From a virus (Duplodnaviria; Heunggongvirae; Uroviricota; Caudoviricetes), in the IMG/VR virus record IMGVR_UViG_2654587728_000014, positions 1 through 64,000 of that record: DNA of 64,000 bases, one strand, 5' to 3'. The translations under genes were made by a program, and so were the position numbers. Numbering within the stretch: position 1 is the stretch's first letter; each line of letters opens with the position of its first letter. Below the pieces are notes generated by a model. The model saw only the letters and a program-made list of their open reading frames with translations, was not told where the DNA came from and made no database searches. Shown one piece after another: positions 2,965-64,000 of this stretch.

Positions 2965-3018
2965 TAAGTAATATGCAGGCGGCGCAGTGCGCCGCCTCTG
3001 ACTGAAAGGAGTTTCCTG

Positions 3019-3384: not shown

Positions 3385-3548
3385 TCACGGTTGTGTGCTT
3401 TGAGCACATAGAAGACTTTGTGGCAGATATTGCCGTTATTTTTAACTGGTCGCCCGCCGAAATCTTCATGATGACGCCCGGCGAAGTGGTTAGCTGGCGT
3501 GAGCGGGCGGCACTTCGCAGCGGGAATGCAGACAATGAAGACTCTTGA
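3019..3548 (+). CDS. E': gpE+E' extended chaperone made by programmed -1 frameshift at TTTTTTG (3330-3336)
   Basis: slippery heptamer TTTTTTG inside E; the -1 frame continues as ORF 3312..3548 (FFERCGLWREER...NEDS). Confidence 0.65.
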
Positions 3549-8072: not shown

Positions 8073-8666
8073 ATTGGCTATATTCGTGTGTCAACAAATG
8101 ACCAGAACACGGATTTACAACGCAATGCACTGAACTGCGCAGGATGTGAACTGATTTTTGAAGATAAAATCAGCGGAACGAAATCAGCCAGACCGGGATT
8201 GAAAAAACTGCTCAGAACGCTATCAGAAGGAGATACGCTGGTTGTCTGGAAGCTGGACAGACTGGGCAGAAGTATGAAACACCTGATCACGCTTATTGAG
8301 GAATTGCGGGAAAAAGGTGTTAATTTCCGTAGTCTGACGGACAGCATTGACACATCAACACCCATGGGGCGTTTCTTTTTTCACGTCATGGGGGCTTTAG
8401 CCGAAATGGAACGTGAATTAATTGTAGAGCGTACACTGGCCGGGCTGGCAGCAGCACGCGCACAAGGACGCATTGGCGGACGTCGCCCGAAGTTGACAAA
8501 AGAACAACACGAGCAAATAGCGAGGCTGATTAAAAACGGTCATGACAGGAAACAACTGGCGATCATTTACGACATCGGCATATCGACGATTTATCGTTAT
8601 CACCCTGTAGGCGATATACAGGCTGAAGAAACAACCAGGCAGACTCAGGAAAATAAAAACCGCTAA
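8067..8666 (+). CDS. Gin/Hin/Pin-family serine DNA invertase (invertase 2)
   Basis: 199 aa MQIGYIRVSTNDQNTDLQRNAL...; paralog of invertase 1 in inverted orientation. Confidence 0.93.
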   Translation: MQIGYIRVSTNDQNTDLQRNALNCAGCELIFEDKISGTKSARPGLKKLLRTLSEGDTLVVWKLDRLGRSMKHLITLIEELREKGVNFRSLTDSIDTSTPMGRFFFHVMGALAEMERELIVERTLAGLAAARAQGRIGGRRPKLTKEQHEQIARLIKNGHDRKQLAIIYDIGISTIYRYHPVGDIQAEETTRQTQENKNR

Positions 8667-9193: not shown

Positions 9194-10681
9194 TCAATCT
9201 TTATCGTAAAAACTGCCACGCCCGGCACGGGCGCGCCGTTCCATTTCTGCCCTGACCATTTCGCCAATCAGTTTCGCCAGTTCGCGGGGATTCTGTGTAA
9301 CAACGTTATGCAGATGAACATGAATTTCACCGCCAAATCCGGAGGCAACAGGCTCCCGGTTACGGGAAGTTGCAGGAACTGATGCCACTGGCGATCGTAT
9401 AGCCTCCGCCACCGGGCGGGAGCTGGCCGCAACAACAGGGACCAGCGCCGGAGGCAGCGGAGCCGGAACCACGGGTGTGATAGTAATTGCGGGGGCAGGC
9501 TTACTGACCTGCGCAATCTTCCGCTCCTGCCACTCCCCACGAACAGCAAGTGCGCGGGGCAGGTTCTTAAAGACAATATCGCCGGGGCCAATGCGTTTTT
9601 TCGTCTCATCAACCAGCTTACCTGTGTTATCAGCAATTTTGCTGAGTCTGCGTAGCGTACCGGTATTGTTGTCTGTGAGCGGTTTGTTGTCTCTGGGTTT
9701 ATCGCCTTTTTTGTCGTCGACCTTATCTGACGGGGCCGGGCCGGGAGTCCATGGTTTCTGAACCATTTTCTTGAGAACCGGATCCCATTCCCACATTACA
9801 GGAGCCTTTGAAGCGTTCTCTATTTTCTTTCTCGCCCGTTCCGCTTCATCCGGAAGCACTCCGAGCTTTTCAAGTATCCACGCCAGTGAATCCATCAATG
9901 CTTTTGTTGGCGTCAGGACAAGCTCTATCGCTCCACCGAGTACCCTGCCGAATACCTCGCCAGCACTGGTACATTTATCCAGCGTTTCCTTGCTGGACTC
10001 CATCGGTGACAGCAGCGATTTAAACCAGTTAAAGACCTGAATAATCCCATCGCGCACGACATCAAAAACTGGACCGAACCGTTCAAAGGTTTCGCGCAAC
10101 GGAGCCAGCCGTTCCATAATCCCACTGAACACCCCTGCATAAAACGCCTTGATGGGTTCCCAGTATTTCCAGATGAGAACCGCCGCAGCCACAAACGCAG
10201 CAGCAATCAATCCGACCGGGCTGAACAGCGCCCCGATAGCGCCCCCCAGTAACGAAACGGAACCCGTCACCATTCCCCATAGTGCTGGCAGGAGCCTGAC
10301 AGCATTCATTGATCCGGTCAGGAGGGAAAAGCCAAGACGCAGTTTTGCCAGCGGGCCAGCAAGCACACCAATAGCCAACGACAACGAGCCGACCGTTGCA
10401 GTCATCGCCAGCAATGCCCCACCTGCAATCAGTAGCTGGCGCGTCAGTGCCGGATGGGCCTGCGCCAGCGCCGTCACCTTTGATACCACCCGCGTGAGCC
10501 ACTGCGTGACAGAACGCAGCGGACCGTCAATCAGATCTGCAATGCGGATGCGCAACCCTTCCCATGCACTGCCGAGTGATTTCAGATCGCCGTCAAGGTT
10601 GTTGGCCATAACCTTTGCTGTGCGTTCAGCCTCACCGCGCGCGCCTTCAAGTTCTTTTCTCAGTTTGGGTAAGGAGCCGTC
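9194..10681 (-). pseudogene. T: P2-like tape measure protein gpT, C-terminal part (upstream boundary is the Mu-like end at about 10681)
   Basis: ORF 9194..10609 (471 aa) with Gly/Ala-rich hydrophobic tape-measure segment; frame open only to an in-frame stop at 10658-10660. Confidence 0.78.
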
Positions 10682-14687: not shown

Positions 14688-15854
14688 TTAAACCCCTTTG
14701 ACAACGTCAGCGTTGACCTGTGGAACCCCGATTTCAGCGGCCAGATTCATGGCGGCTATTACCAGGTTACTGACGGCCAGCGGATACAGCAGGCTGACCA
14801 TATTTTTACGATGACTTCCCGGATTGCTCAGGCGGGCACGTATGGCATCCACTGCGCTGGCGTCCATAATGTCCGTCAGTTGTTTACCGGCCCGTTGCAG
14901 TTTGAACGTCAGAAACTCTTCAAGGTTATTGTCCAGAGGCAGAAGTTCGACCACCTCACAGCGCTGAACGACTTCACGGACTTCCATATTGCGTTCAGAC
15001 AGTTTTGTCGCCAGTTCCGGCTGGCCAATCAGCACGATGGACAGCAGTTTTTTGAAACCGGACTCCAGCTCAAAAAAGCGTTTGAGGTGTTTCAGTGTCG
15101 GAATGGGCAGACTGTGGGCCTCCTCAATCACCAGAACGTGGCTGAACCCCGCCTGGCTGCTGTCTTTCAGGACGCGATGCAACTGGCGAAAGCGGGCGTC
15201 CTGACTGCGTCTGATGCTTTCCAGTGGTGCGATGGTACTGATAATGGCTTCGGCAATCGCTGCTGCCTTCAGGGTTTTCCCTTTCACATCGTTGTCTTCC
15301 ATAGCGATGATGTATGGCTCGATAACAATTACCGGCGCATTCTCGCGGTTGATACGTTCAGTCAGGTCGCGGCGCAGCGTGGATTTACCCGCACCGGACT
15401 CACCGATGACGGCCATAAACCCACCATGACGGGCTGTCTGGTACAACGCCTCACGCACGTAGCGAATATCCGGGGTGGTGAACACATCATCAGAACCCTG
15501 CATGGCTTCGTCGGCGAACGGGTCACGGAAAAGACCAAACGCTTTTTTGGTTGCTGGAAATAACACCTGTTTTTTGAGTAACATATTCTCTTCCTCACTG
15601 AGGCTCGTTTTATCTGTGGTACCCGCTGTACGGGGCGTGGCCGCGCCCTGTACAGCATCAAAACTCTTCGTTGTATCAATCCCCTGACTTTCCAGCCAGG
15701 ACGCAAGACGCCGGCGCACTTCTCCGGGGCTGGTGCGGGGCCACGCGTTATGATTCACAATCTGGGCCAGCGTGGCCTCAGAAACATCGACAGCTCTCGC
15801 CACCACCGCCTGTGGAATACGGGCCTCTTTCAGTTGCTGCTTCAGTACCAGCAT
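14688..15854 (-). CDS. Mu B-like transposition ATPase
   Basis: Walker A AVIGESGAGKST, N-terminal HTH; probable start MLVLKQ after GGAGGG RBS; ORF track 14688..15893. Confidence 0.8.
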   Translation of the reverse strand: MLVLKQQLKEARIPQAVVARAVDVSEATLAQIVNHNAWPRTSPGEVRRRLASWLESQGIDTTKSFDAVQGAATPRTAGTTDKTSLSEEENMLLKKQVLFPATKKAFGLFRDPFADEAMQGSDDVFTTPDIRYVREALYQTARHGGFMAVIGESGAGKSTLRRDLTERINRENAPVIVIEPYIIAMEDNDVKGKTLKAAAIAEAIISTIAPLESIRRSQDARFRQLHRVLKDSSQAGFSHVLVIEEAHSLPIPTLKHLKRFFELESGFKKLLSIVLIGQPELATKLSERNMEVREVVQRCEVVELLPLDNNLEEFLTFKLQRAGKQLTDIMDASAVDAIRARLSNPGSHRKNMVSLLYPLAVSNLVIAAMNLAAEIGVPQVNADVVKGV

Positions 15855-15864
15855 GTTTCCCTCC

Positions 15865-17634
15865 TCAGTTGCCGTTAACAATGCTGATAACACTGCTGCG
15901 GGCCGGTGTGGTCAGCGTGGCCATGACTTCATCCAGTGCGGCTTCCGGTACGCCGTCCGGGTACTGTGCCGTTAACTGGCGGTAATGTTCCGGCGTCCAG
16001 GTAAGGCCGTCGGCGCTGAACTTATCGCGCAGGGCTTTCGCGGCCTCCACATGAGTCATGGGACGTTGTTCAGTGCGCGGCCCGCGTACGTCAGAGGCCT
16101 GACCACGCTTCGGCATATAGGCCGGAAGTGTGGTGTCGTCGATATGTTTATACGGGTCAAGCCGCCCGCCGAACGGCAGCGCCTTCGCCTTGCGTGCGGC
16201 GGCTGCATCTGCGGCGTTGTCTGTACCGGTAACCAGCGCTTCGGTTTCTTTTGCCGCCATCTGTGCCGGGGTTTCCGGCAGGGCTTTGTAACTTTCGCCA
16301 AATACCGCCGCGCCTTCAGCAAAGCCAAACTCGTTCTTTCTGACCTCTTCGACCAGGAAGAACGTCTCGTGGCCGTCCTCACCGGTCAGAACCACCTGTG
16401 CCACATCGCTGCGCCATGGGTTACGGGTAATCATCAGTTTTTCACCAACCAGTACGCCCGGTACCGTTGATACGTCAAATTCAGTGCCCCGGAACGAGAC
16501 ACGAAGTTTTGGCGTGACTTTGCGGAGTTCTGGTGCCGCCACAGCCAGTTCACGACATACCTCAACGGAAGGCGCTTTTTTCAGCTGCTCAGCAGTAATC
16601 TTCAGCCAGATATCCGTGCGGGTTTTACCGTGGCGGCTGTGAACAGCCGTGGCGTTAAAGTGGCTGCGCCATTTCGCGGCCAGCGCGTTGAGTTCTTCCA
16701 GACTGTGAACCGGCCGGAACTTCAGACCCGGCTCCAGCTTGCGTTCGATAATGTCACGCGCCTTTTCCACCTGTCCGGTGGCGCGGGCGTTATGCGGCTT
16801 GTGCGCTATCAGGTCGATGCCCAGTGAGCGGCACATGTTTTTCGTCATACCCGCGGTGTTTGCCGAGCCGGGGTCGAGATAGAGTATTTTCGGCACGCCG
16901 TGCAGCACGTCTGCGCCGCCACGCTCCTGCATGGCGTTGATAAGCACAGAACACAGGTTCTCACCTGATTCCGCGCCCGTCACATACTCAACGTAAATCC
17001 AGCCGCTGGCATGGTCGGTAATCTCGTAACTCCACACGCGGTCACTGGCGATACGGGCAAGGTTAGCGGGCTTGTTCTTGTAGAACTTCGCGCTGTCCAT
17101 CACCTGCAGCCCTTTATGTCCATTGCTCAGGTAGTAAAGCGTGCAGAGTGAGGCGTCAATCTGCCAGACATGATTGGGATGCAGACTGGCCACTTCGGTA
17201 TGTGGTGCAGGGGCATCCAGTTGTTCCGGGTGCAGGCCATAGTTACGCAGAGCACGGCTGATGGCATCTTCAGACAACGGGAAAAACTCACTGGTGGTTT
17301 CATCTGTTCTGCCTGCGGTGATAAAGCCGTTAGCCCGCAGGGTTTCCACTGCATCTGCGATGGAATAGAGACGCTTACCGTTCTTGCGGGTGGCCTCACG
17401 CAGTGTGGCAGATATCAGCGCGGCTTCGTCGCGGGTCAGGGCGCTGCGCCCGGCATCGGCGCGTTTTTTGCGTTTATCAGTCACAGATACCTCCTTCAGC
17501 CTGCGCAGCAGAGTGGCGCGGGACATGCCAAGTTCAGCACAGGCAGCGTCGTATATTGCACCGCGTTTACCATGCCCCGCGTCACGTGCCGCGCGGGCTG
17601 TTTCAACCAGTTTTTCAGTCAGTGCCGGGGTCAT
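15865..17634 (-). CDS. Mu-like DDE transposase (MuA family)
   Basis: 589 aa; large transposase immediately upstream of B-like ATPase; MuA-like N-terminal DNA-binding and core regions. Confidence 0.88.
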   Translation of the reverse strand: MTPALTEKLVETARAARDAGHGKRGAIYDAACAELGMSRATLLRRLKEVSVTDKRKKRADAGRSALTRDEAALISATLREATRKNGKRLYSIADAVETLRANGFITAGRTDETTSEFFPLSEDAISRALRNYGLHPEQLDAPAPHTEVASLHPNHVWQIDASLCTLYYLSNGHKGLQVMDSAKFYKNKPANLARIASDRVWSYEITDHASGWIYVEYVTGAESGENLCSVLINAMQERGGADVLHGVPKILYLDPGSANTAGMTKNMCRSLGIDLIAHKPHNARATGQVEKARDIIERKLEPGLKFRPVHSLEELNALAAKWRSHFNATAVHSRHGKTRTDIWLKITAEQLKKAPSVEVCRELAVAAPELRKVTPKLRVSFRGTEFDVSTVPGVLVGEKLMITRNPWRSDVAQVVLTGEDGHETFFLVEEVRKNEFGFAEGAAVFGESYKALPETPAQMAAKETEALVTGTDNAADAAAARKAKALPFGGRLDPYKHIDDTTLPAYMPKRGQASDVRGPRTEQRPMTHVEAAKALRDKFSADGLTWTPEHYRQLTAQYPDGVPEAALDEVMATLTTPARSSVISIVNGN

Positions 17635-25328: not shown

Positions 25329-26920
25329 CAAAATCATCCGGAGTGATTTTAAACGCCGCTGGCGGCGGCCCCGAAGGGATGAGTCCCATGGACGGGAGGA
25401 ATAACCTTGCTCCCGTTTTGCCTGATACCTCGGCGCTGGATGCCCCTCCCGTTCTGTTGCCTTACCAGCAGCGCTGGGTGGCAGACACCTCTCCGCTTAA
25501 GGTGATAGAAAAGAGCCGTCGTACCGGTATTACATGGGCTGAGGCATCCGATAACGTACTGACCGCCGCCTCTTCTGCGCCAGCAGGCGGGATGAATGTG
25601 TATTACATCGCTTATAACCAGGACATGACCGTCGAATACATTCAGGCGTGTGCGATGTGGGCACGGGCATTCAACTATGCGGCCAGTGAAATTGAAGAAG
25701 GATTCTGGGAAGAGGACGACGACGACAAACACATCAGGACTTACACCATCAAATTTCCTGACTCCGGCTTTCGTATTGTTGCGCTCTCCAGCCGCCCGTC
25801 TAACCTGCGTGGCCGTCAGGGTATTATTGTTATCGACGAAGCGGCGTTCCATGAGCAACTGGACGAACTGCTGAAAGCGGCGCTGGCGATGCTTATCTGG
25901 GGGGGAAAGGTACGCGTTATCTCCACCCATGACGGTGACGACAATCCGTTCAATACGCTTATCGGGGATATCCGTGCCGGACGTCAGGGAGGCAGCATAC
26001 ATCGCATCACTTTCCGGGAAGCCGTATCTGAGGGGCTGTTCCGGCGCGTCTGTCTGCGCACCGGGAAGGAATGGTCGGAGGCATCCGAGCAGGCCTGGAT
26101 GGCATCGGTGTACAAATTCTACGGTGCCGGCGCATCCGAAGAGCTTGACTGTATTCCGGCCAACGGTGGCGGTGCCTGGCTGTCCCGTGCCCTGATAGAG
26201 TCCCGCATGTCCGCTGATACGCCGGTATTGCGTCTGACCTGCAAGGAAGGTTATGAACTGCTGTCTGATGAGGTTCGCTTCCGCGAGACGCAGGACTGGC
26301 TTGATGAGTATCTGAAACCATTGCTGGAGGCACTCCCCACTGATGCCCGCTCTTTCCTGGGGCGCGACTTTGGCCGTAGCGGTGATTTGTCGGTGGACTA
26401 TCCCCTGCTGCAGGAGAAGAACCTGGTACGACGCGTGCCATTCGTACTGGAGCTGCGTAACGTGCCGTTCAGACAGCAGGAGCAAATCACCTGGTATCTG
26501 ATGGATGGCCTGCCCGGTCTGCTGGGTGCAGCGTTTGATGCCCGTGGTAATGGTGCCTATCTGGCTGAATACGCCATGCAGCGCTACGGCTCCGGCCGGG
26601 TTCAGCAGGTGATGCCAACCGAAGGCTGGTACCGGGAGCATATGCCTCCGGTCAAAGCTGCACTGGAAGACGGCAACCTGGTGGACTTACCAAAGGATGA
26701 AGACACACTGGATGACCTGCGGGCCGTTCAGGTGGTGAACGGTGTCCCCCGCGTACCGGAGCAACGCTCAAAAGCAAAGGCTGACGGTGGTAAACGCCAC
26801 GGGGATTCAGCCATCGCACTGGCGCTGGCGTATTTCGCCAGCCGTGAAATTAACAAAGGGCCGGTGAAGGCAAGCTCACGCCGTCGTCGTCAGGCGGCCC
26901 GTATGCTGGAGGGATTCTGA
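25325..26920 (+). CDS. terminase large subunit (Mu gp28-like)
   Basis: 531 aa; position and size; acidic nuclease-type motifs. Confidence 0.82.
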   Translation: MTKSSGVILNAAGGGPEGMSPMDGRNNLAPVLPDTSALDAPPVLLPYQQRWVADTSPLKVIEKSRRTGITWAEASDNVLTAASSAPAGGMNVYYIAYNQDMTVEYIQACAMWARAFNYAASEIEEGFWEEDDDDKHIRTYTIKFPDSGFRIVALSSRPSNLRGRQGIIVIDEAAFHEQLDELLKAALAMLIWGGKVRVISTHDGDDNPFNTLIGDIRAGRQGGSIHRITFREAVSEGLFRRVCLRTGKEWSEASEQAWMASVYKFYGAGASEELDCIPANGGGAWLSRALIESRMSADTPVLRLTCKEGYELLSDEVRFRETQDWLDEYLKPLLEALPTDARSFLGRDFGRSGDLSVDYPLLQEKNLVRRVPFVLELRNVPFRQQEQITWYLMDGLPGLLGAAFDARGNGAYLAEYAMQRYGSGRVQQVMPTEGWYREHMPPVKAALEDGNLVDLPKDEDTLDDLRAVQVVNGVPRVPEQRSKAKADGGKRHGDSAIALALAYFASREINKGPVKASSRRRRQAARMLEGF

Positions 26921-28416
26921 TGGCGAGGGGTATCTGGGTTTCACCCGATGAATTTGTTGCTTTTTCTGAGCCTCAGAAATCACTGACCGCGCAGATTGCC
27001 TCCCGCAGCCGCGCGATCGACTTTTACGGACTGGGCATGTATCTGCCCAATCCTGATCCCATTCTCAAGGCTCAGGGACGGGATATCCGTATCTACCGCG
27101 AACTGCGCACCGACCCGCTGGTCGGGGGCTGTATCCGCAGACGTAAAGCAGCGCTTAAATCGCTGGAGCGTGGACTGGAGCGTGGTCACGCCTCTGCCCG
27201 GGTCTTCCGTTTCATCCGCGACATGCTCGACGATCTGGATCTGTCCCGCATCATCGGTGAAATGAGCGATGCCGTGCTCTACGGGTATCAGCCCTGTGAA
27301 ATCATGTGGGGCCGTTCGGTCAGGTCGTGGGCGGTGACGGATATTGTCGGCAAACCGCCTGAGTGGTTTCAGTTTGATACGGACAACTGCCTGCGCTTCC
27401 GGGCGCGTGATGCGGGTGTGGAGGGTGAGCTGCTGTCACCGTCAAAATTCGTGGTGCCGGCACAGGATGCCTCGTATGACAATCCTTACGGTTTCCCGGA
27501 CCTGTCCATGTGCTTCTGGCCGGTCGCCTTCAAGAAAGGCGGGATGAAATTCTGGCTCCGCTTTGCCGAAAAGTTTGGCTCCCCGTGGGTGATCGGTAAG
27601 CACCCGAGGGGTGCAAATGATGCAGAGATTGAAAAACTGCTGGACTCCATGGAGCAGATGGTGGAGGACGCGGTGGCCGCCATCCCCGATGACAGCAGCA
27701 TCGAACTCAAAGCCGCGGATGGTAAGGCGGACAGCAGCGAGGTATTCCGCGAGCTGATCACACTGTCACGCAGTGAGATCTCCATTGCATTACTCGGTCA
27801 GAATCAGACCACGGAAGCGAACAGTAACAAGGCCTCTGCACAGGCCGGGCTGGAGGTAACGGCTGATATCCGCGATGCGGATGCGGACATCATTCAGGCG
27901 GCAGTGAATCAGGTCATCAGAACGGTGGTCACCCTGAACTTCGGCGATGTGCCGTGTCCGGTCTGGGCCATGTGGGAACAGGAGGCCATTGATGACACCC
28001 GTGCCACCCGCGACGAAAAACTCACCCGGGCGGGTCTGCGTCTGACCCCGCAGTACTTCAAGCGTGAGTACCAACTGCAGGACGGCGATATTGACGAGAC
28101 ACCACCGTCGGAACGACAGAATAACATGCTGCCGCTGTCATTTGCCGAGGCGATTGATGCTGATATTCAGGCTCAGCAGCAGCTTGACGACGCGCTGGAC
28201 ATTCTGATGAACGGAGGCGCGTTAAATGGCACGCTGGAACCCGTCCTGGCACCTCTGTTCAGGCGGGTCGAAAATGGGGTTAACCCGTCTGAGCTGCTGG
28301 GCGAACTGGCGGAGCTCTACCCTCAGATGAACACGGACGATCTGCAGGAGCGGCTGGCCCGCATTCTCTTTGTGACAAATATCCGGGGGCGTCTGCATGA
28401 GCGTGACAACGGCTGA
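26920..28416 (+). CDS. portal protein (Mu gp29-like)
   Basis: 498 aa following terminase. Confidence 0.82.
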   Translation: MARGIWVSPDEFVAFSEPQKSLTAQIASRSRAIDFYGLGMYLPNPDPILKAQGRDIRIYRELRTDPLVGGCIRRRKAALKSLERGLERGHASARVFRFIRDMLDDLDLSRIIGEMSDAVLYGYQPCEIMWGRSVRSWAVTDIVGKPPEWFQFDTDNCLRFRARDAGVEGELLSPSKFVVPAQDASYDNPYGFPDLSMCFWPVAFKKGGMKFWLRFAEKFGSPWVIGKHPRGANDAEIEKLLDSMEQMVEDAVAAIPDDSSIELKAADGKADSSEVFRELITLSRSEISIALLGQNQTTEANSNKASAQAGLEVTADIRDADADIIQAAVNQVIRTVVTLNFGDVPCPVWAMWEQEAIDDTRATRDEKLTRAGLRLTPQYFKREYQLQDGDIDETPPSERQNNMLPLSFAEAIDADIQAQQQLDDALDILMNGGALNGTLEPVLAPLFRRVENGVNPSELLGELAELYPQMNTDDLQERLARILFVTNIRGRLHERDNG

Positions 28417-43319: not shown

Positions 43320-43890
43320 GCCATTACAACTCCCGCCACCGCTTGAGGGTGATATCAGTCTCAGGACGCTGGGAAGACTGGCAGGACGGCTGGATAACAT
43401 CGACCTGAGCGTACTGATGGTCTTTCTCGTCGATATCGTCGACAGTTCCGCGCTGCCATGGCTGGGCGAGCAGTTCTCACTGTCTGGCGATGGCTGGGAG
43501 CTGGCGGAATCGGACGATGTTCGCCGCATGCTTATAAAAGCAGCCATCGAACTGCACCGGTATAAAGGGACGCCGTGGTCAATCCGGGAAGTTATCCGCC
43601 GTTTTGGCTTTGGTGAAGTGGATCTGATTGAAGGCACAGGTCGTCTCAGTTACGACGGCAATCGCAGCTATAACGGACTGTTTGTTCATGGAGATGCAGC
43701 CGCCTGGGCAGTTTATCGCGTTATTCTGAAACAGCCCATTACTAACGATCAGGCCGCGATGCTGCGTCAGACGCTCGCTGCATTTGCACCGGCCCGCTGC
43801 CATCTGGCCAGCCTGGAGTATCAGTCTGTGGCCATTCGCTATAACAATACCGCCATCCATGATGGCAGTTATAACCACGGGAGCAGTTGA
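43312..43890 (+). CDS. tail protein I family
   Basis: 192 aa before tail-fibre gene. Confidence 0.78.
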   Translation: MTEPLQLPPPLEGDISLRTLGRLAGRLDNIDLSVLMVFLVDIVDSSALPWLGEQFSLSGDGWELAESDDVRRMLIKAAIELHRYKGTPWSIREVIRRFGFGEVDLIEGTGRLSYDGNRSYNGLFVHGDAAAWAVYRVILKQPITNDQAAMLRQTLAAFAPARCHLASLEYQSVAIRYNNTAIHDGSYNHGSS

Positions 43891-45341
43891 TTATGGGAAA
43901 CCTGAATGAAACAGAAAAGTGGGAAGAAAATATCTATCAACTGGAGACATCAGATCCGGTTCTGGGTGGTGCAGACGGGATATCAAATCGAGCCCCCCGG
44001 CAACTGGCAAACAGGACGAAATGGCTGAAGAAAAAAACGGAGGAAGCCGCACAGTCACTGGCTGAACACGTACGTTCCCGTAACCACCCGGACGCGACAC
44101 TGACAGCTAAGGGGTTCACCCAACTGAGCAGTGCCACCAACAGCACCTCTGAAACGCTGGCCGCCACACCAAAGGCCGTCAAGGCTGCATATGACCTGGC
44201 TGCCGGCAAGGCCCCCGTCAGCCATACTCACCCGTGGAGTCAGATAACGGGAGTGCCTGCTGCCTCGCTGACGGCAAAAGGCACCGTACAACTGAGCAGC
44301 GCCACGGACAGTCAATCAGAAACTGAGGCTGCCACGCCGAAGGCGGTCAAGGCTGCATACGACCTTGCAGCCGGCAAGGCGCCCGTCAGCCACACTCACC
44401 CGTGGAGTCAGATAACGGGAGTGCCTGCTGCCTCGCTGACGGCAAAAGGCACCGTACAACTGAGCAGCGCCACGGACAGTCAATCAGAAACTGAGGCTGC
44501 CACGCCGAAGGCGGTCAAGGCTGCATACGACCTTGCAGCCGGCAAGGCGCCCGTCAGCCACACTCACCCGTGGAGTCAGATAACGGGAGTGCCTGCTGCC
44601 TCGCTGACGGCAAAAGGCACCGTACAATTGAGCAGTGCCATCAACAGCACGTCTGAAATACTGGCCGCCACACCGAAAGCGGTCAAGGCTGCATACGATC
44701 TGGCAAACGGAAAACAACCGGCAGATGCCACGCTCACTGCTCTGGCAGGACTTGCCACTGCAGCAGATCGGTTGCCTTATTTTACCGGAGCAGACCGCGC
44801 AGAGCTGGCAACCCTTACAGCTATTGGTCGCGCTATTATCGCTAAGGGCAGTATAAAAGATGTCCTCAATTACCTTGGTTTGGGGGAAGGCTCTGCATTG
44901 CCTGTTGGTGTACCGGTTCCATGGCCCACCGCCACACCGCCAGCAGGCTGGTTACAGTGCAACGGAGCTACGTTCACCAAAGAACAATATCCTGTTCTGG
45001 CCAGAGTCTACCCGACCCTCCGTCTTCCCGATTTGCGCGGTGAGTTTATCCGTGGATGGGACGGTGGTCGCAAGGTTGATACCGGGCGTGCGCTACTTTC
45101 ATTTCAGGAAGGGACTATCGTATCCGGTTTTGATGATAATGATACCGGAGATATCAGTTCGCTCGGCTCTACACAATACGGATTTGGTGACGCTTTAACC
45201 TCTAATCAACTGGGGGTCTTAAATGGCAAAAAGTGGATATTTGATGCATCCTCTAAAGGTGCACAAAGATATGACTGGTGGGCTTATGTATCAGCTCGCC
45301 CCCGCAATATCGCATTTAACTATATCGTGAGGGCGGCGTGA
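43887..45341 (+). CDS. tail fibre protein S of Mu-like element (constant part up to site C, then variable part)
   Basis: 484 aa; tandem shaft repeats; C-terminus LGLGEGSALPVGVPVPWP...NYIVRAA shared with H and the cassette ORFs. Confidence 0.9.
   Translation: MIMGNLNETEKWEENIYQLETSDPVLGGADGISNRAPRQLANRTKWLKKKTEEAAQSLAEHVRSRNHPDATLTAKGFTQLSSATNSTSETLAATPKAVKAAYDLAAGKAPVSHTHPWSQITGVPAASLTAKGTVQLSSATDSQSETEAATPKAVKAAYDLAAGKAPVSHTHPWSQITGVPAASLTAKGTVQLSSATDSQSETEAATPKAVKAAYDLAAGKAPVSHTHPWSQITGVPAASLTAKGTVQLSSAINSTSEILAATPKAVKAAYDLANGKQPADATLTALAGLATAADRLPYFTGADRAELATLTAIGRAIIAKGSIKDVLNYLGLGEGSALPVGVPVPWPTATPPAGWLQCNGATFTKEQYPVLARVYPTLRLPDLRGEFIRGWDGGRKVDTGRALLSFQEGTIVSGFDDNDTGDISSLGSTQYGFGDALTSNQLGVLNGKKWIFDASSKGAQRYDWWAYVSARPRNIAFNYIVRAA
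44099..44700 (+). repeat. tandem 168-bp coding repeats (about 3.5 copies; two perfect copies at 44267-44434 and 44435-44602)
   Basis: exact 168-nt periodicity encoding LTAKGTVQLSSATDSQSETEAATPKAVKAAYDLAAGKAPVSHTHPWSQITGVPAAS. Confidence 0.85.
44865..44891. other. gix-like crossover site C (CTCAATTACCTTGGTTTGGGGGAAGG)
   Basis: consensus core; same orientation as site A; at the constant/variable junction of S. Confidence 0.6.
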
Positions 45342-45347
45342 TACCGT

Positions 45348-45962
45348 TCAGCCGGCAAGCGCCAGTGGCGCTTCCGGCCAGCTGATTTCAGGTGCCTTGC
45401 TGATATCCAGTGCGTTCAGCTCGTCGATATAATCCAGCACGGCGTTCAGTTTTGCCGTTTCTTCTGGTTTCAGACTGCGACCAGCACGCAGTTTGAGGTT
45501 GATAAGATCGACGGACGCCATCGCCTGTTTCACCCGTTGCTGGCGTTGCTGTCTGGCAACCTCCAGTTCTGCGGCTCGCTGCCGTTCAGTATCGGTTACC
45601 CACGCCTCACCGTTCCAGGTATCCCATGGCGTGGCTGGCTGTTTTGTGGTGGTGTCCGCCGGGTAATCACCCGGTTGGGTAATCAGAACGGGGTTACCGT
45701 TCTCCGTGCTGTATACCGTCTCGCCGCGGTGATCAGGCACATGCTCCCACCCGTTCAGCGTGGCAGTCCGGCAAACCACGTAACCCGAAATTGCTTCCGG
45801 CGGTGCATCGGCGCACGAATGTGCCGGAGTACCCACCCCAAGGGCGAGATACTCCACAGAGGATGAGGTGTATTCCCGGGTTTCCTCGTCATAGTGATAT
45901 ACAGTGATATCGCCCGCTACAGTGGCGATACCGTTTTCATCCAGAACTGCAGTGTTACTCAT
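45348..45962 (-). CDS. G: tail fibre assembly protein (P2 G / Mu U family)
   Basis: 204 aa directly downstream of H; stop is 6 bp from the stop of S on the other strand. Confidence 0.85.
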   Translation of the reverse strand: MSNTAVLDENGIATVAGDITVYHYDEETREYTSSSVEYLALGVGTPAHSCADAPPEAISGYVVCRTATLNGWEHVPDHRGETVYSTENGNPVLITQPGDYPADTTTKQPATPWDTWNGEAWVTDTERQRAAELEVARQQRQQRVKQAMASVDLINLKLRAGRSLKPEETAKLNAVLDYIDELNALDISKAPEISWPEAPLALAG

Positions 45963-57847: not shown

Positions 57848-58893
57848 TGAGCAGAAAAAATAAAAAAGTGCGCATGAGTTCACGCATTGATCTCGCTGAT
57901 GCGCTCAGGAAAGAATCATCGCTCAGTGCATTCACATTTGATGGTCCTTATCGCCTGACCGGGCATGACCTGCTGGACAATATGTACTGTGCTGATAACG
58001 GGCGGTGGTATGAAACCCCGGTGGACTGGTACGGTCTGGCAAGAGCAGCCCGGCAAACGTCCTGGCATCAGTCTGCGCTTTACTTTAAGCGCAATGTATT
58101 ACTCGGTTGCTACATCCCGCACCCGCTGCTTTCCCGGCAGGATTTCTCGGCGCTGGCGCTGGACTGGTTTGTGTTCGGTAACGCATTCCTTGAGCTTCGA
58201 AGCAATATGCTCGGCGAACCGCTTAAATTACGGCACGCCCTGGCGAAATACATGCGACGCGGAAGCGATCTTGAATCATGGTGGTATGTGCAGGATGGCA
58301 AGGACGCGTTTCAGTTTCGTCCTGGCAAAGTGTGCCACCTGATGAATCCGGATATTAACCAGGAAATCTACGGCATGCCGGAATATCTTGGCGCATTACT
58401 CTCGGCCAGCCTTTCTCATTCGGCGGACATGTTCAGAAAACTGTACTACGACAACGGATCCCACGCCGGGTGCATCATCTACATCGGTGCAGCGCAGGTA
58501 AACCGCGAAAGCATGGACTCCCTGAAAGAAACGCTACAGGGGGCACGTGGTGGTGGTGCGTTTAAAAACGTGCTCATTCATGCGCCCAACGGGGGCAAAG
58601 AGGGGGTGCAAATTTTGCCGTTCCAGCAGATCACCGCAAAAGATGAATTCATGAATGTTAAGGCGGCATCCCGTGATGATGTGCTGGCTGCGCACCGCGT
58701 TCCGCCGCAACTGATGGGGGCGATGCCGGGCGAAAAAAGTGCGTTTGGCGATGTGGAGAAGGCAGCGCGGGTTTACGCAATTAACGAGCTGATGCCCGTC
58801 ATGGAGGCTATGAAGCACATCAATGACTGGCTTGGCGAAGAGGTGATCCGTTTTAACTCTTATGCTCTTCTTGATGAAAAAACAGCCCCGTGA
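57847..58893 (+). CDS. Q: P2-like portal protein gpQ
   Basis: 348 aa; ATGA-coupled to P. Confidence 0.9.
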   Translation: MSRKNKKVRMSSRIDLADALRKESSLSAFTFDGPYRLTGHDLLDNMYCADNGRWYETPVDWYGLARAARQTSWHQSALYFKRNVLLGCYIPHPLLSRQDFSALALDWFVFGNAFLELRSNMLGEPLKLRHALAKYMRRGSDLESWWYVQDGKDAFQFRPGKVCHLMNPDINQEIYGMPEYLGALLSASLSHSADMFRKLYYDNGSHAGCIIYIGAAQVNRESMDSLKETLQGARGGGAFKNVLIHAPNGGKEGVQILPFQQITAKDEFMNVKAASRDDVLAAHRVPPQLMGAMPGEKSAFGDVEKAARVYAINELMPVMEAMKHINDWLGEEVIRFNSYALLDEKTAP

Positions 58894-58910
58894 TGGGGCT
58901 GTCCTTTTTA
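58883..58910. terminator. bidirectional hairpin terminator between Q and the first cargo gene
   Basis: CAGCCCCG-TGA-TGGGGCTG with T-runs on both strands. Confidence 0.6.
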
Positions 58911-59432
58911 CCAGAGTTGAACCATTTTCTGGGTGCCGTCAGGCTTGAGATTATCAATTTCAGAGAGAACGTAATATTGAATGGCTTCACAAACGGTGGT
59001 GTAGGGTGAATTACCTTCTTTAAGTGGCACGATATTATTATTAACGCGAACCTGTATTTCATCGTTATACATTGCGATCGAAACAGGCGTGTGCACGAAC
59101 GCGACTTCGCCAGGTGTGTCGTCAACCACCGTTTCAATACTAAAAGTCAGTTTTCGCTCATCATTGCTGCCCCGTGCTTTGGGGGTAGCGGCAGGGATCT
59201 GGGATAAAGGCATTCTGCGAAATCCTTCGGCTGCTTCCAGTCCGCATGAAACGTAATGCTGGCGATTACCGTCGCTATCTGTCCAGGTCTGTGATGGCAG
59301 CTCCAGCGAGATTTCATAAGCATCAACAATGCCCTGGGCAAGGCGTACAAGCGGGGTCAGATCTTCATTGCGGCGAAAGCTCTCCTTTACCTGCTCCCGT
59401 TTTTCTCTTAACTGCTTGTAATTAATGACCAT
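58908..59432 (-). CDS. hypothetical protein, hotspot cargo (174 aa)
   Basis: ATG after GGAGG RBS; no family recognised; ORF track 58908..59471. Confidence 0.5.
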   Translation of the reverse strand: MVINYKQLREKREQVKESFRRNEDLTPLVRLAQGIVDAYEISLELPSQTWTDSDGNRQHYVSCGLEAAEGFRRMPLSQIPAATPKARGSNDERKLTFSIETVVDDTPGEVAFVHTPVSIAMYNDEIQVRVNNNIVPLKEGNSPYTTVCEAIQYYVLSEIDNLKPDGTQKMVQLW

Positions 59433-59954
59433 AAGACAGCCTCCATTGATTTCTTTGCTCGTATTTTGCACTTATGAAGTATGGTCGGCAAGGTGCCGTA
59501 TCGCTGACGCGCTTCGCTTGTCTGCTGCTTCGCCGGGGCATAAAAAATTTATGCCCCGGCTCTCCAGCTCCTGTATCAATCAGATAATTTCACGACGCCT
59601 TCCAGTTTATCGCCACCATCGACGGTCAGACTCTTACGCAATTCCACCGCGTTGACTGTATGTTCTCGCTGCCTCAGTGCGATTTTGACGGCCTTACCTT
59701 TCACCCCATCAAATCAAAAGCCCTCACGCCTTTTTCATGCTCAGCGTGAGAAATATGGCCATTCTGTTGTGTCTCTGCGACATCGTTCAGGGAATGCTAT
59801 TTACCCCCTGAAACGCGGGCTGTTCCCCCGTCACCTGCGCGCAGAAAAAACGCGTTTTTTTGTGCACGTACGGATCCTTGACGGATCCAGCCACCACGCG
59901 GGCCGGAAGTACAAAAAGTCGTTCAAAAAAATTGTGCAAACTTGTGCACTATCG

Positions 59955-59986
59955 TGCAAACAAAAAAAGCGCCTTATCGGCGCTTC
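59955..59986 (-). terminator. rho-independent terminator of 89-aa cargo gene
   Basis: on minus strand AAGCGCCGATAAGGCGCTT followed by TTTTTTTGTTTG. Confidence 0.6.
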
Positions 59987-59993
59987 AAAAGTA

Positions 59994-60263
59994 TCAATTG
60001 TTGCTGTTTATTAATCGCCAACCACGAACATATGCTTCATAGGCATCTCTGTGCCTTACAGTTCCAGCCTGGCTAAACGGAATGTTAGCTAAAACTAAAT
60101 CATTCTGAGCCATAGCGCGTCCTTCAAGCGCATCTTTTATGCCTAGCTCAAAAGCACAGGCAGCGCATTTGTGCCGACCTTCTTGTCCTTGATATTCAGG
60201 GAGAGACAGAAATGTTGGATTATAACGATGAGGGTTCTTGCAAATACCTGTTTTAGCCCGCAC
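59994..60263 (-). CDS. hypothetical small protein, hotspot cargo (89 aa, Cys-containing)
   Basis: GTG start with GAGG RBS; own strong terminator; no family recognised. Confidence 0.45.
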   Translation of the reverse strand: MRAKTGICKNPHRYNPTFLSLPEYQGQEGRHKCAACAFELGIKDALEGRAMAQNDLVLANIPFSQAGTVRHRDAYEAYVRGWRLINSNN

Positions 60264-60393
60264 TTTATTTACCTCATAGGAAAAATATGCGTGCCTTTAC
60301 AGAGGTGCGTGTAAGCAATAAAATATACGACGCACATTTTGATTTACTTCGGAAGGCACGCATATCAGGTTAAGTGAGCCCGACCGAGTTTTA

Positions 60394-60427
60394 CGCCCCA
60401 ATAGTTGCTGCTATTGGGGCGTTTTGC
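60394..60427 (+). terminator. plus-strand hairpin terminator with no upstream plus-strand CDS (possible small RNA 3' end)
   Basis: CGCCCCAATAG-TTGCTG-CTATTGGGGCG followed by TTTTG; long-range inverted repeat TATGCGTGCCTT...AAGGCACGCATA upstream. Confidence 0.4.
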
Positions 60428-60627
60428 ATGGACAATGCCGCGCAATTATCTTGTCGCTCACAATGCGAACGATCTTACAAAAAGGCACATTACTGTCAAG
60501 ATAATTGATCGTTTTAATCGATAGATAATAGACAATCTATTTGTTTAACAGATCGATTATTGAAGTAAGTGTGCCAAATGGAATGATACTGTCTCTATAA
60601 ACGTGAGCATTTTTCGCGCAGATGCTT

Positions 60628-60939
60628 TTACTCAGGAAATAACGCCCGGATATTCCCAGCCATCTGGCTGGTTATCTTAGCCACTGGTGCAGACTGTGCT
60701 TCAAACTTTTTTGAGCTGATTTGTGTCACAGGTAACATCTCATCATCAGCCCATGCGGCCAGTCGGTAAGCCTCTGCCGGATTCGTCTTCAGAAGTGCCA
60801 GCCCGGCCAGAAAAGCCACGCGTTGGCCGCTTTTGCGGGCTTCTGGTGTAAGGCTGTCCAGCCAGGCGCATGCTTCTCCTTCGTTCTTGACGGCGGCGGG
60901 CTTCAGATAGAAACTTATCCGTCTGGTTGGTGTCGTCAT
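60628..60939 (-). CDS. parR: ParR-like centromere-binding protein
   Basis: 104 aa from MTTPTRRISFYLKP (compare R1 ParR RRTIAFKLNPD); AAGGAG RBS; 4 nt after parM stop. Confidence 0.6.
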   Translation of the reverse strand: MTTPTRRISFYLKPAAVKNEGEACAWLDSLTPEARKSGQRVAFLAGLALLKTNPAEAYRLAAWADDEMLPVTQISSKKFEAQSAPVAKITSQMAGNIRALFPE

Positions 60940-60943
60940 TGGT

Positions 60944-61903
60944 TTACTCCTTGTCCATTGCGTACAGCCCATTAACCAGAGCAAACTGTGGCACCCCGTC
61001 CGCGATGAAAGTCGCATTAACTCCGCAGGCTTCGCGGATAGCGGGTGCCACAATCTCCGCCCCGCCACCGACAACCATCACCCGCCCGTAACCCGAAAAA
61101 ACCGCCAGCGCGCGGATCACGCGTTGTTTCAGTGTTTCTTCCTTTTCACGAATAACCGCCATCAGGCTGGCGTAATGCGCGTCATTGTGGATGTGCTGGC
61201 GCAGCCAGGCTTCATTATGGCGATGTTCGATAATGGTATTGGCGATGTGGTGACTGGTGCGCATACCGTTAGTGGCCATCACCGACAGTACGGCATCGGC
61301 CATAAGAGAAACGCCTACGTGTGGATCGCAAAACACCTGGCTGATACCTGCCAGTTGCCCCTGAACCTTTGCCACATCCAGCGTGGTTCCGCCCAAATCC
61401 ACAATCAGCAGGGATTCAAACGGACTCATGTCAGCCAGTGCTTTAAAGCCAGCCGGAATGGATTCAGGCATAACCCGTACGTTACGGATAGTGAATGCTT
61501 CGCCGTTCTGGTACTCCACCGGGCGCATGACGTTCGCTTTTTTGCGGTTGATGTTGGCCATGTCCGGCTGTGCGTTTGTGTCGAAATATTCGCTCAGTGG
61601 CAGGGTAACAACCACATCCACTTCCTGTGGCGTGATGTCTGATTTGACCAGCGCGTGATGAATGGCAATGACATTCACATCGCTGTACTGGTATTGCGTG
61701 TCGGTCGTCTGGACAAAGCGATCGCTGACCGGATCAAAACCATAGCGCACGCCATCAAGCATGTAGTTAGCAGGCTGCGAGCCACCGAACGGCGCAGACC
61801 ATTCCGACTTGAAGCTGTTCGGGCTGATGGCGTTGCGGCGTTCGCCGTTCTCAGTCCATGCCAGCTTGATGTTGGTGGAGCCGTCGTCGATGTAAATTTT
61901 CAT
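60944..61903 (-). CDS. parM: ParM/StbA-like actin-family segregation ATPase
   Basis: 319 aa; blocks IDDGSTNIKL, SPNSFK, YSDVNVIAIHHAL, VMPESIPAG, LIVDLGGTTLDV, MVVGGGAE shared with R1 ParM. Confidence 0.85.
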   Translation of the reverse strand: MKIYIDDGSTNIKLAWTENGERRNAISPNSFKSEWSAPFGGSQPANYMLDGVRYGFDPVSDRFVQTTDTQYQYSDVNVIAIHHALVKSDITPQEVDVVVTLPLSEYFDTNAQPDMANINRKKANVMRPVEYQNGEAFTIRNVRVMPESIPAGFKALADMSPFESLLIVDLGGTTLDVAKVQGQLAGISQVFCDPHVGVSLMADAVLSVMATNGMRTSHHIANTIIEHRHNEAWLRQHIHNDAHYASLMAVIREKEETLKQRVIRALAVFSGYGRVMVVGGGAEIVAPAIREACGVNATFIADGVPQFALVNGLYAMDKE

Positions 61904-61932
61904 GTCGGTTTTCCTTATGTTGATTAATTAAT

Positions 61933-62046
61933 CGTTTACGGGATTCTGAAATCCCGTTTTTGCCTGTTTTGTGCGCGCCTCATATATCGCTGCGCGTTTT
62001 TTGCTCATTTACGGGATTCGTGAGTCCCGTTTCTGTCTGTTTTTTG
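61933..62046 (+). repeat. two 41-bp direct repeats, each containing a dyad (ACGGGATTC..GAATCCCGT) and T-rich tail
   Basis: 61933-61973 and 62006-62046, about 80% identical; one in the last codons of A, one between A and parM. Confidence 0.5.
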
Positions 62047-64000
62047 TTTCCACTGGTCAGGCCACCCCGCAGCAGGTCTGCTTTGCGGCTGGCGCGTTCA
62101 GTGGTTTCACTGATTCTCTGTGCGTGCTCTGCGTCGCGGATGGCGCGCAGCATGTCAGAAAGCACGGTAACGGGTGTTTTCATGGTGTTCTGGTCCTGCT
62201 GAAGTGTGGATGCCAGGCGTGCGGCGGCTTCAGGGTCTGATGCCCCCAGCTGTGCCAGATAGCTGGCGACCGGGTTATGGCGGATCTCCGTGCTGCTTAC
62301 GCCATGATTACGGCTCAGACGCTGCCAGAGCTGCGTGATTCGGCTGTCCGGGCGGGTATCCGGTTTGCGTACAATTTCAAATCCCTGCGGTGCAATGATG
62401 CTGCCGTCAACGTACAGACTGCCGCCCCGTAACAGGTGCTGCATCTGTTGTTCACCGATATGCAGGCCGAGAGATTCAGCAGACTCCCGCCATTCTTTAG
62501 CGAGTAACTCGTGGTTATCAGGCAAAGGCCGCTGCTGTTTGCGGCTCTGTGTCCAGTTCTGCATTTCATCGCTGCTGTTTTTTGCCTGTTTGTCACGAAG
62601 CGAACGCATCAGCGCCCGGCGTTCGTGCCGTTTCAGTGAGCGCATCCATTCATTTACTTCAACGCCGTCAGGAAGCTGCGGCCACGGTGCTGGCCGTTCT
62701 TCCGGCTGTTCTGTCCCGTTGTTGCCTGTTTCCTGTACACGGGGACAGTTATTGCCACGAGTCCAAGGGGCGGCAGGGCCGCCCTGAAGGTCAAAACCAT
62801 TTTCGCGGGCGCTGTCTTCCGCTTCCGGTTTGCGTCTTACCAGCTTCCAGTTATCCGGATGCGTGCATACGCGGGAAGACTCCCCAATGAGCGGCGACCA
62901 GATCCCGTAAATCTGTACGCTCTGTTCACCGTAATCGTTCAGCTCATCTGCGAGGTCGTAGGCGGTGCGAATCAGGTAGTCTTTGCGTGGAACAAGTACG
63001 CCACCCTGTTTCTCAATGTAGGTGGCAAAACATCCGGCATCAGCGGCAGCGAGTACCGCGTCCATTGCGTCATCCTTCAGCCGTTGCGGGCCTTCCGGAT
63101 TGCGTGCCATCTGGCTGGCAAGGCGGCGCAGTTCACGCCACACCTGACGGGAGGGGATGCCAAAGAACTGGAACTGACGGACCCGGTGAAGGCGCGCCCA
63201 GCCGATGGCGCGCTCCACGCTCTCGGCCATTGATTTACCTGTTTCGTGGTCAACGCGTGGCTTGCCCGTTTTCGGGTCGATGCCATCCACGGCGCGGCTG
63301 TCCAGGTTCTTTCCGATGTAGGTGGCGATGTAGCTGGTTGGCGTGCCTTTTGAGCCGTCGACGTACTCCGCCTTAAAACGCGGAGTTATGTCATCGCCCA
63401 GCTCGTGGCGGTCTTCCTGAATGGCAATATCGCAGACGTGGGACACGATGGTTTCAATCTCGTCCGGATGTGCAAAGACCATCATATGCCAGTGCACAGT
63501 GCCGTCATGGTGAGGCTCCACCGTGCGGATGCCATACCAGCGCAGGCCGTCGCGGTTCAGTTTTTTGCGGACCGCCGCAAAAAACGTGTTAACCAGGTAA
63601 TCGCTGGAGTCGCGCATTGTGGCCCCGTTCCATTTGGGATTCGGATGACCGTTCTCCGTTGTTGCGTGGTATTTTGACGGGCAGGTGACAGTCAGAAACA
63701 CCGCTCTGTCGCCACGGGCTTCGGCCAGAAGTTCCAGCCCCTTCATGGTGGCCATCATTTCTGCCTTACGGTGAACCGGGTTACTTACTCCCGCGTAATA
63801 CACCGTCTCGAGATCAATCGTGAACCCGTCTTCATTTTCCAGCATGAAACTTTTCAGGAAATCGCGTGTTTTCTCGCGCTGTGCGCGAAACTCGCTTAAC
63901 GCGTCCTGGCTCAGATAGGGTGATGTTTTTCTGGAAACCAGACAGGCGGCGCGGAGTTGTTCTTCCCGCCACTCGCAACGTAACAGCCACAGTTTGCGTT
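61980..64000 (-). CDS. A: P2-like replication initiation protein gpA, C-terminal part (gene continues beyond window end)
   Basis: ORF 61980..63845 open to window edge; rolling-circle initiator with histidine pair HWHMMVF. Confidence 0.85.
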   Translation of the reverse strand, partial: RKLWLLRCEWREEQLRAACLVSRKTSPYLSQDALSEFRAQREKTRDFLKSFMLENEDGFTIDLETVYYAGVSNPVHRKAEMMATMKGLELLAEARGDRAVFLTVTCPSKYHATTENGHPNPKWNGATMRDSSDYLVNTFFAAVRKKLNRDGLRWYGIRTVEPHHDGTVHWHMMVFAHPDEIETIVSHVCDIAIQEDRHELGDDITPRFKAEYVDGSKGTPTSYIATYIGKNLDSRAVDGIDPKTGKPRVDHETGKSMAESVERAIGWARLHRVRQFQFFGIPSRQVWRELRRLASQMARNPEGPQRLKDDAMDAVLAAADAGCFATYIEKQGGVLVPRKDYLIRTAYDLADELNDYGEQSVQIYGIWSPLIGESSRVCTHPDNWKLVRRKPEAEDSARENGFDLQGGPAAPWTRGNNCPRVQETGNNGTEQPEERPAPWPQLPDGVEVNEWMRSLKRHERRALMRSLRDKQAKNSSDEMQNWTQSRKQQRPLPDNHELLAKEWRESAESLGLHIGEQQMQHLLRGGSLYVDGSIIAPQGFEIVRKPDTRPDSRITQLWQRLSRNHGVSSTEIRHNPVASYLAQLGASDPEAAARLASTLQQDQNTMKTPVTVLSDMLRAIRDAEHAQRISETTERASRKADLLRGGLTSGNKKQTETGLTNPVNEQKTRSDI

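Follow-up and report, generated by a model that had tools for sequence, protein, structure and literature searches.

In the type II (ParMRC-type) partition system of plasmid R1, the centromere parC consists of ten 11-bp iterons that flank a promoter, and the adaptor protein ParR binds ParM through its C-terminal 17 residues (PMC3794156). Actin-type systems have also been described in elements that are usually integrated: the SXT/R391 integrative and conjugative elements (ICEs) carry the ParM-type system srpMRC, whose expression is confined to the activated state and which keeps the excised circle, replicated by the relaxase, stable (Carraro et al. 2015, PMC4489591), and in the Corynebacterium glutamicum prophage CGP3 the AlpAC system shows early induction, and efficient replication of the phage DNA requires it (Donovan et al. 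2015, PMC4446434). With regard to P2-like phages, Rousset et al. (2022) noted a 'putative plasmid partitioning system' in about one quarter of them and speculated on a role in plasmid maintenance (PMC9122126), and when we searched the literature for experiments on the ParMR of P88-like or P2-like phages, we found nothing beyond this one-sentence remark. Both the observation of parMR and the phage-plasmid hypothesis are, in consequence, already published. Here we analyse a parM-parR pair (parMR) located next to the replication gene A of a P2-like prophage, in a stretch of 64,000 nucleotides (positions 1 to 64,000 of the IMG/VR virus record IMGVR_UViG_2654587728_000014, referred to below as the window). 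We find that parMR is fixed in the backbone of the P88-like (Xuanwuvirus) lineage, which belongs to the P2-like temperate phages, that it evolves under purifying selection and is selectively maintained, and that the elements hosting it are overwhelmingly chromosomally integrated prophages. We propose, giving it an even chance of being right, that parMR may act on the transient extrachromosomal circle of the phage, co-expressed with gene A.

Gene A, parM and parR all lie on the minus strand and run in the same direction (Table 1), with 76 bp between the stop codon of A and the ATG of parM and 4 bp between the stop codon of parM and the ATG of parR, as read from the DNA. An earlier annotation made from the letters alone (the sequence-only reading) had described the two genes as co-directional with A, directly 3' of it, at these spacings and with strong ribosome-binding sites (RBS), and both the coordinates and the AAGGA-type sites confirm this description. 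The RBS of parM is invariant across the alignments of nine relatives and a Hafnia variant. In the case of parR, the open reading frame (ORF) as listed reaches a TTG at 61074; all annotated relatives use the ATG at 60939, preceded by AAGGAG. Gene A matches the Pfam family Phage_GPA (3e-82), and an identical copy in E. coli O157:H7 FRIK944 is 2841 bp long and encodes a protein of 946 amino acids (aa) annotated as 'replication endonuclease'. ParM is covered end to end by the Pfam domains PF06406 (StbA_N, 1e-80) and PF21523 (the ParM C-terminal domain, 3e-68), matches R1 ParM in the PDB (1mwk) over residues 1-316 with an E value of 8e-92 in phmmer, is 46% identical over its full length to an R1-type ParM from a plasmid and belongs to PHROG 691 ('partition protein'). 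The ATP-binding blocks of R1 ParM (DDGSTNIKL, MPESIPAG, DLGGTTLD and GGGAE) are intact in the ParM alignments, so that the actin-fold blocks recognised by the sequence-only reading hold, and ParM has both the domains and the nucleotide-binding motifs by which a type II ParMRC system is recognised. ParR matches the Pfam family PF10784 (Plasmid_stab_B, 1e-23), is filed as a partition protein in PHROG 2515 and is 33% identical to R1 ParR in the part aligned with residues 1-61 of the latter; the R1 ParR query was verified by its 100% identity in more than 1000 IncF plasmids. A PDB sequence search with ParR gave no match at E values up to 1. ParR is what is expected of the second component, a small predicted adaptor directly 3' of parM whose N-terminal part is predicted to form a ribbon-helix-helix DNA-binding domain of the R1 ParR/StbB family. 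Judged by its sequence, the locus is a genuine type II module and a homologue of the one on plasmid R1, and a plasmid ancestry of parMR is plausible.

The purifying selection on parMR was observed in nine close sequences, in which the ratio of nonsynonymous to synonymous substitution rates (dN/dS) was 0.077 for parM, 0.038 for the portal gene Q and 0.128 for gene A. The corresponding value was 0.28 for the N-terminal 65 codons of parR (0.13 inside one allele class) and ~0.8 for its linker. In ParR, residues 1-65 form a conserved N-terminal domain and residues 66-93 a hypervariable linker, after which comes a conserved C-terminal tail, and there are several allelic linker classes, with the variation concentrated in the linker and not in the DNA-binding strand. 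In fact, the segment RRISFYLKP, which matches the position of the ribbon-helix-helix strand of R1 ParR, is invariant in all ParR alleles, and this fits an invariant DNA site. The extreme C-terminus is conserved after the linker as [KG]NI[QR]x[LF]FPE, reading NIRALFPE in the window copy. This layout is the one expected for an adaptor that would work through both of its ends. Furthermore, parMR is found intact inside decayed prophages, such as that of the O157:H7 strain 7409, which has an IS3 element directly after parR, and that of the window, in which the tape-measure gene is split, and parM and parR are full-length in 29 of the 30 matches listed for the parMR query and in 27 of the 30 listed for the A-parM junction query, both being spread samples.

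The position of parMR in the backbone is shared by the whole lineage. The 5.2-kb stretch from Q to A is 95-98% identical, at 75-88% coverage, to the phages P88, 520873, 503458 and PhiR44_2 and to the Citrobacter phage phiSM, and its A-parM-parR-(cargo)-Q-P region is collinear with that annotated in P88 (Xuanwuvirus, Peduoviridae). The records of P88 and its relatives already list these genes, as ParM and as a partition protein. Compared with them, the window copy differs in having its own ParR linker allele and other cargo after parR, and in nothing essential.

To place the module among host genomes we used a set of 5426 complete E. coli genomes. The parMR query matched 1303 of them (~24%), at 1449 chromosomal and 2 plasmid places, whereas the A-parM junction query matched 1372 genomes, with 1532 of its 1534 places in chromosomes and 2 in plasmids; the junction was intact (coverage of at least 80%) in 1287 of these 1372 genomes (94%). 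The strains carrying parMR include O157:H7, O104:H4, O145 and ST131-related ones. Every full relative examined has a tyrosine integrase and a Cox-type excisionase (the window ends before that region), and the integrase adjoins btuC in FRIK944, dmsA in strain 4/0 and pheA in a Salmonella copy. In PLSDB, seven 'plasmid' records contain a close copy, and four of them were inspected. One is an unplaced linear prophage fragment, another (NZ_CP110658.1) is a Salmonella prophage with the chromosomal flanks pheA, tyrA, rplS and ffh on a record labelled IncHI2, and a third shows a remnant context as in O157:H7. The fourth, pZ1323PEC0009-2 (NZ_CP148288.1), is a complete circular P88-like phage of 34,461 bp with its integrase, and is the only phage-sized circle found. 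Another strain of the same project has a 100% identical phage integrated in its chromosome, so this circle may be an excised replicative form. The Salmonella P88-like copy in NZ_CP110658.1 also has sopE in its tail-fibre region (2745-3467 of the locus).

The sequence-only reading had suggested that the element may be, or derive from, a phage-plasmid, and this view is poorly supported by the chromosomal places, by the genes next to the integrases and by a single phage-sized circle that has an integrated twin. A phage-plasmid would be an autonomous, non-integrated replicon with theta or telomere replication of plasmid type and independent of an integrase; here the integrated copies have chromosomal flanks, the replication gene is a P2-type A and the integrase is kept. 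Identity to the parM genes of genuine plasmids is only ~66% at the DNA level and ~50% at the protein level. A search of genome contigs with ParM gave only nine loci, three of them close (E. albertii, Salmonella and 'Vagococcus') and six of plasmid type with ~50% identity. The 'Vagococcus sp.' contig (NZ_JBQPOM010000071.1) contains an enterobacterial P88-like A-parM-parR-Q region with 97% identity, and is almost certainly an assembly contamination or a mislabelling.

Table 1. Coordinates of the features discussed, in positions of the 64,000-nt window.
Feature	Position	Strand	Remarks
Gene A, HUH rolling-circle initiator, 3' two-thirds only	61980..64000	-	truncated by the window end
parM, actin-fold segregation ATPase, 319 aa	60944..61903	-	Pfam, PDB and PHROG matches
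parM RBS, AAGGAA, 7 nt 5' of the ATG	61911..61916	-	read from sequence
parR, adaptor and predicted DNA-binding protein, 103 aa	60628..60939	-	Pfam, R1 ParR alignment, PHROG
parR RBS, AAGGAG, within the parM 3' end, 7 nt 5' of the ATG	60947..60952	-	read from sequence
Repeat D1 copy A, candidate parC half	62005..62046	.	overlaps the 3'-terminal codons of A; palindrome 62011-62030 (gene strand: ACGGGACTCACGAATCCCGT)
Repeat D1 copy B, candidate parC half	61932..61973	.	in the 76-bp A-parM spacer; palindrome 61938-61957
Probable replication origin (nick region) within gene A	62737..62786	.	50-nt island of cross-genus conservation
Terminator-like hairpin and T-run	59966..59986	-	8-bp stem, 5 GC pairs, then TTTTGTTTGC
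Segment with 187-aa ORF (PHROG 5091)	58894-59503 (ORF 58908-59471)	-	variable; common to two relatives
Conserved non-coding block, ~480 bp	59504-59985	.	common to all relatives including Hafnia
Variable cargo with 89-aa ORF (PHROG 3941) and ATCGAT repeats	59986-60627 (ORF 59994-60263)	-	common to FRIK944 only
parR side	60628 onward		common to all relatives
MuB-like ATPase	14688-15893		Mu-like prophage
MuA-like transposase	15865-17634		Mu-like prophage
Mu portal	26920-28416		Mu-like prophage
Gin-like recombinase	8067-8666

The cos site of P2-like phages is located between gpA and gpQ, and this interval of P2 is a published defence hotspot (PMC9122126). The module described here sits at the A-proximal edge of this hotspot, yet it is fixed within the P88-like lineage. 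The homology with relatives ended exactly at the stop codon of parR, and when the region from parR to Q was mapped in the 12 relatives matching it, the 640-bp segment that follows (59986-60627) was present in only one of the 12. As the variable segments lie beyond parR, and parMR lies on the conserved side, parMR is not part of the variable A-Q cargo, and the presence or absence among similar phages that marks hotspot cargo is not seen for it. Because it is found in about one quarter of all P2-like phages, it varies between lineages and not within this one. Furthermore, when ParM, ParR and both cargo ORFs were run against PADLOC, there was no match at E values up to 0.1, that is, no known or candidate anti-phage defence family was hit, and a defence function for parMR was rejected on this result. 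The sequence-only reading had offered captured hotspot cargo as its other explanation; the location at the edge of the A-Q hotspot stands, but the fixation in the lineage, with the junction intact in 94% of matching genomes, and the start of the cargo after the parR stop codon go against the rest of it. The 187-aa and 89-aa cargo ORFs, which flank the conserved non-coding block, have no Pfam match above threshold. This block bounds the parR-proximal cargo on its far side and probably corresponds to the cos/packaging region. The P2 cos 19-mer used as a query is absent within 3 mismatches, so we infer the position of cos from the block only. Within it there are short direct repeats, with ACGGATCC occurring twice at ~59869-59890 and GTGCAAAC-like units at ~59934-59962.

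The best candidate for parC is a pair of repeats that straddles the stop codon of A. D1 is a 42-nt direct repeat whose two copies are 81% identical and 73 bp apart (~7 helical turns), and each copy holds a 20-nt palindrome with the arms ACGGGAyT/rATCCCGT. The palindrome GGGAyT-N4-rATCCC has no further occurrence in the 64-kb window or in the complete 34-kb related phage, with 0.12 expected by chance, and the D1 palindromes are kept in nine close relatives and in the more distant Hafnia variant, with invariant arms and variable loops. Variable columns amount to 4/42 in copy A, 6/42 in copy B and 9/31 in the sequence between the copies. At ~700 bp from this candidate lies the segment 62737-62786, the sole part of the 5.2-kb query that matches (90%) the P2-like phages of Klebsiella, Salmonella and Yersinia, and this island, with its putative resemblance to the nick sequence of the P2 ori, probably represents the origin (nick site) of rolling-circle replication.

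In R1 and in the plasmid ParM loci of ~50% identity, a sigma-70 promoter is flanked on each side by obvious 11-bp iterons. Neither the 76-bp spacer nor the 3' end of A was found to contain an iteron array like that of R1, pairwise alignment to R1 parC showed only A/C-richness and a similar Shine-Dalgarno context, and the CA(A/G)AAAC motifs at -143, -132, -100, -68 and -59 are suggestive but form no regular array. An R1-like iteron array upstream of parM was rejected on this alignment and on the repeat scan. Nor did the ATCGAT repeats at 60490-60560, which the sequence-only reading had put forward as ParR-binding iterons, survive as a parC: they lie in the segment shared with one of the 12 relatives, while parR is common to all of them, and the promoter-like site of the 89-aa ORF (TTGACA-16-TAAGAT, minus strand, 60472-60499), which has GATC/ATCGAT palindromes just upstream, overlaps them.

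Regarding transcription, a scan of the gene strand from 62400 to 60500 (a crude consensus test) found no sigma-70-like promoter upstream of parM; by eye, a weak candidate with ~7/12 matches, TGAGCA-16-TATATG, lies across the stop codon of A. On the gene strand the D1 hairpins are followed by AAACGA and AAATGA, with no T-run, and the hairpin at 59966-59986 is the first convincing terminator of that strand 3' of A-parM-parR. As no recognisable promoter or sense-strand terminator separates A from parMR, the latter would be transcribed as the tail of the early operon. The folding of the RNA of the A-parM junction (z -4.1) does not discriminate between models, because the score is driven by the palindromes pairing together. 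The whole region 58800-62400 contains 14 terminator-like sites, compared with 4.1 +/- 2.2 expected.

In P2, the early operon that ends with A is repressed in the lysogen and is expressed after infection or induction. As the proposed tail of this early replication operon, parMR would be off in the repressed lysogen and on after infection or induction. ParR would then bind the two palindrome-bearing repeats close to the probable origin, its C-terminal tail would capture ParM filaments, and these filaments would push apart or disperse the circular phage genomes produced by A-dependent rolling-circle replication. The benefit would be to stabilise or spread the transient extrachromosomal form, so that it is not lost at division after excision, and also to spread the templates under replication or packaging, for example in SOS filaments; permanent maintenance as a plasmid is not meant. 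If expressed only together with a free replicating circle, the presence of partition genes in an integrated prophage would no longer be a paradox. The sequence-only reading had stated that an integrated prophage has no use for an active partition system, which is contradicted by srpMRC (PMC4489591) and by AlpAC of CGP3 (PMC4446434). A more specific version, which we hold tentatively and somewhat under an even chance, is that parMR could be a genome-positioning machine of the lytic or induction phase, switched on with A and using a minimal palindromic centromere near the origin to spread the monomeric circles that arise by rolling-circle replication across the cell or along an SOS filament. In a variant of it, parMR may help the phage to outlast an abortive induction or a delayed integration as a short-lived plasmid.

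Several points weigh against a role on the phage circle. We infer both the timing and the target of the module, and the selective benefit is not evident, since classical partition offers little to a lytic phage whose host dies within a generation. The candidate parC does not resemble that of R1, and copy A of D1 lies within coding sequence, where its conservation does not clearly exceed the coding background. On the plus strand each palindrome is followed by a T-run (61938-61965 and 62011-62040), antisense to all local genes, so the D1 palindromes score as plus-strand intrinsic terminators and their role may be transcriptional instead of centromeric; they might block antisense transcription into gene A. 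In addition, a weak ParR-regulated promoter could lie between the palindromes, and the AlphaFold2 monomer model of ParR is of low confidence (predicted local distance difference test 56, predicted template modelling score 0.29).

Other explanations of parMR must be considered. One is that it keeps the phage as a low-copy, A-replicated episome, for instance before integration or in cells that lack attB, and this role has been speculated about in print (PMC9122126). The homology to a real plasmid partition system would agree with such a facultative plasmid, as would pZ1323PEC0009-2, a whole P88-like phage filed as a plasmid which also has a Hok/Gef toxin gene (1291-1431, near ogr), another stability function of plasmid type. 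We regard it as unlikely, since only 2 places in the genome survey were in plasmids, the identical 34-kb phage is integrated elsewhere, the other PLSDB matches inspected were prophages with chromosomal flanks or fragments, and the integrase is kept in all the relatives examined. Besides, in P2-type regulation A belongs to the lytic early operon with cox, and its sustained expression leads to late-gene activation and not to stable carriage, which disfavours this explanation further.

It is improbable, in our opinion, that parMR works at the level of the host as hotspot cargo of the lysogen, causing incompatibility with or exclusion of plasmids or of superinfecting P88-like phages whose centromere is similar, or having some defence-like function. 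Its place at the border of the defence hotspot between gpA and gpQ (PMC9122126), its integrity in decayed prophages and the several linker classes of ParR could be understood in this way, but PADLOC was empty, parMR is fixed beside A and no promoter of the lysogen type was found. Moreover, even the closest true-plasmid parM is as distant as stated above, the parC iterons of plasmids are unlike the phage palindromes, and ParR varies in its linker (dN/dS ~0.8) and not in the DNA-binding strand. Finally, parMR as a non-functional relic of an old plasmid-phage recombination, passively carried, is hardly credible: a dN/dS of parM similar to those of essential phage genes, the intact catalytic motifs, the conservation of both the N-terminal domain and the C-terminal tail of ParR while the linker drifts, and the full-length genes in nearly all the matches listed speak against it, even though neither a classic iteron array nor an own promoter was found and the prophage in the window is itself defective.

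The P2-like prophage of the window is disrupted, with its tape-measure gene split into parts of 468 aa and 471 aa in opposite orientation (3499-4905, plus strand, and 9194-10609, minus strand). A Mu-like transposable prophage (~10.7-45.3 kb) separates the P2-like tail module from the rest, and a Mu-like tail-fibre gene (43887-45341, plus strand) abuts a P2-like tail-fibre assembly gene (45348-45962, minus strand), a Mu/P2 joint that is also present in E. coli strain 4/0. This layout suggests an invertase-mediated rearrangement between two prophages.

If the genome-positioning proposal were true, parMR would be the first actin spindle of the R1 family shown to serve an integrating tailed phage, and one present in about one quarter of E. 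coli strains. An action on the transient circle would extend the precedents of the ICEs and CGP3 to a major group of enterobacterial phages and would make the P88 and phiSM lysogens a simple and tractable system to study partition machinery in integrating elements. Carriage as a plasmid, in turn, would mean that P2-like phages join the phage-plasmid continuum.

When compared to ParMRC of R1/NR1 (parA/stb), the phage module agrees in gene order (parM, then parR), in the expected placement of the cis site upstream of parM and in having a similar context around the RBS, CATAAGGA. The phage ParR end, KKNIQxLFPE or GNIRALFPE, resembles by eye only the end of R1 ParR, KKNAMKLIN, and in R1 the C-terminal peptide has a ParM-binding role (PMC3794156). 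However, the phage module is carried by an integrating phage and R1 is a low-copy plasmid, the upstream spacer of the phage is only 76 bp long, and instead of two sets of five 11-bp iterons and a clear autoregulated promoter it has two 42-nt repeats, one of whose palindromes lies in A. The phage ParR is also shorter, 103 aa with a hypervariable linker as opposed to the 117 aa of R1 ParR.

The likeness to srpMRC is of another kind, because in both cases a ParM-type system is found in a usually integrated element that relies on a rolling-circle, HUH-type initiator when excised. The centromere of srpMRC is itself small, a handful of repeats, direct and inverted, within the 5' untranslated region of the ParM gene, which we count as a further likeness. 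In contrast, SrpM and SrpR are distant from R1 ParMR, with SrpR having no recognisable ParR domain, whereas the phage proteins are clearly of the R1 family; in addition, the host of srpMRC is an ICE and not a tailed phage, and its function has been shown, while the phage module is known from sequence. AlpAC of CGP3 belongs to a prophage of a Gram-positive host, its actin-like protein is very divergent and its gene order is alpA-alpC. Likened by description, AlpAC and parMR share an integrated prophage as carrier, an actin-like filament protein with a co-transcribed adaptor that binds upstream of the operon, as ParR would do at the D1 repeats, and an action early after excision, which for parMR would be that of the tail of the early operon.

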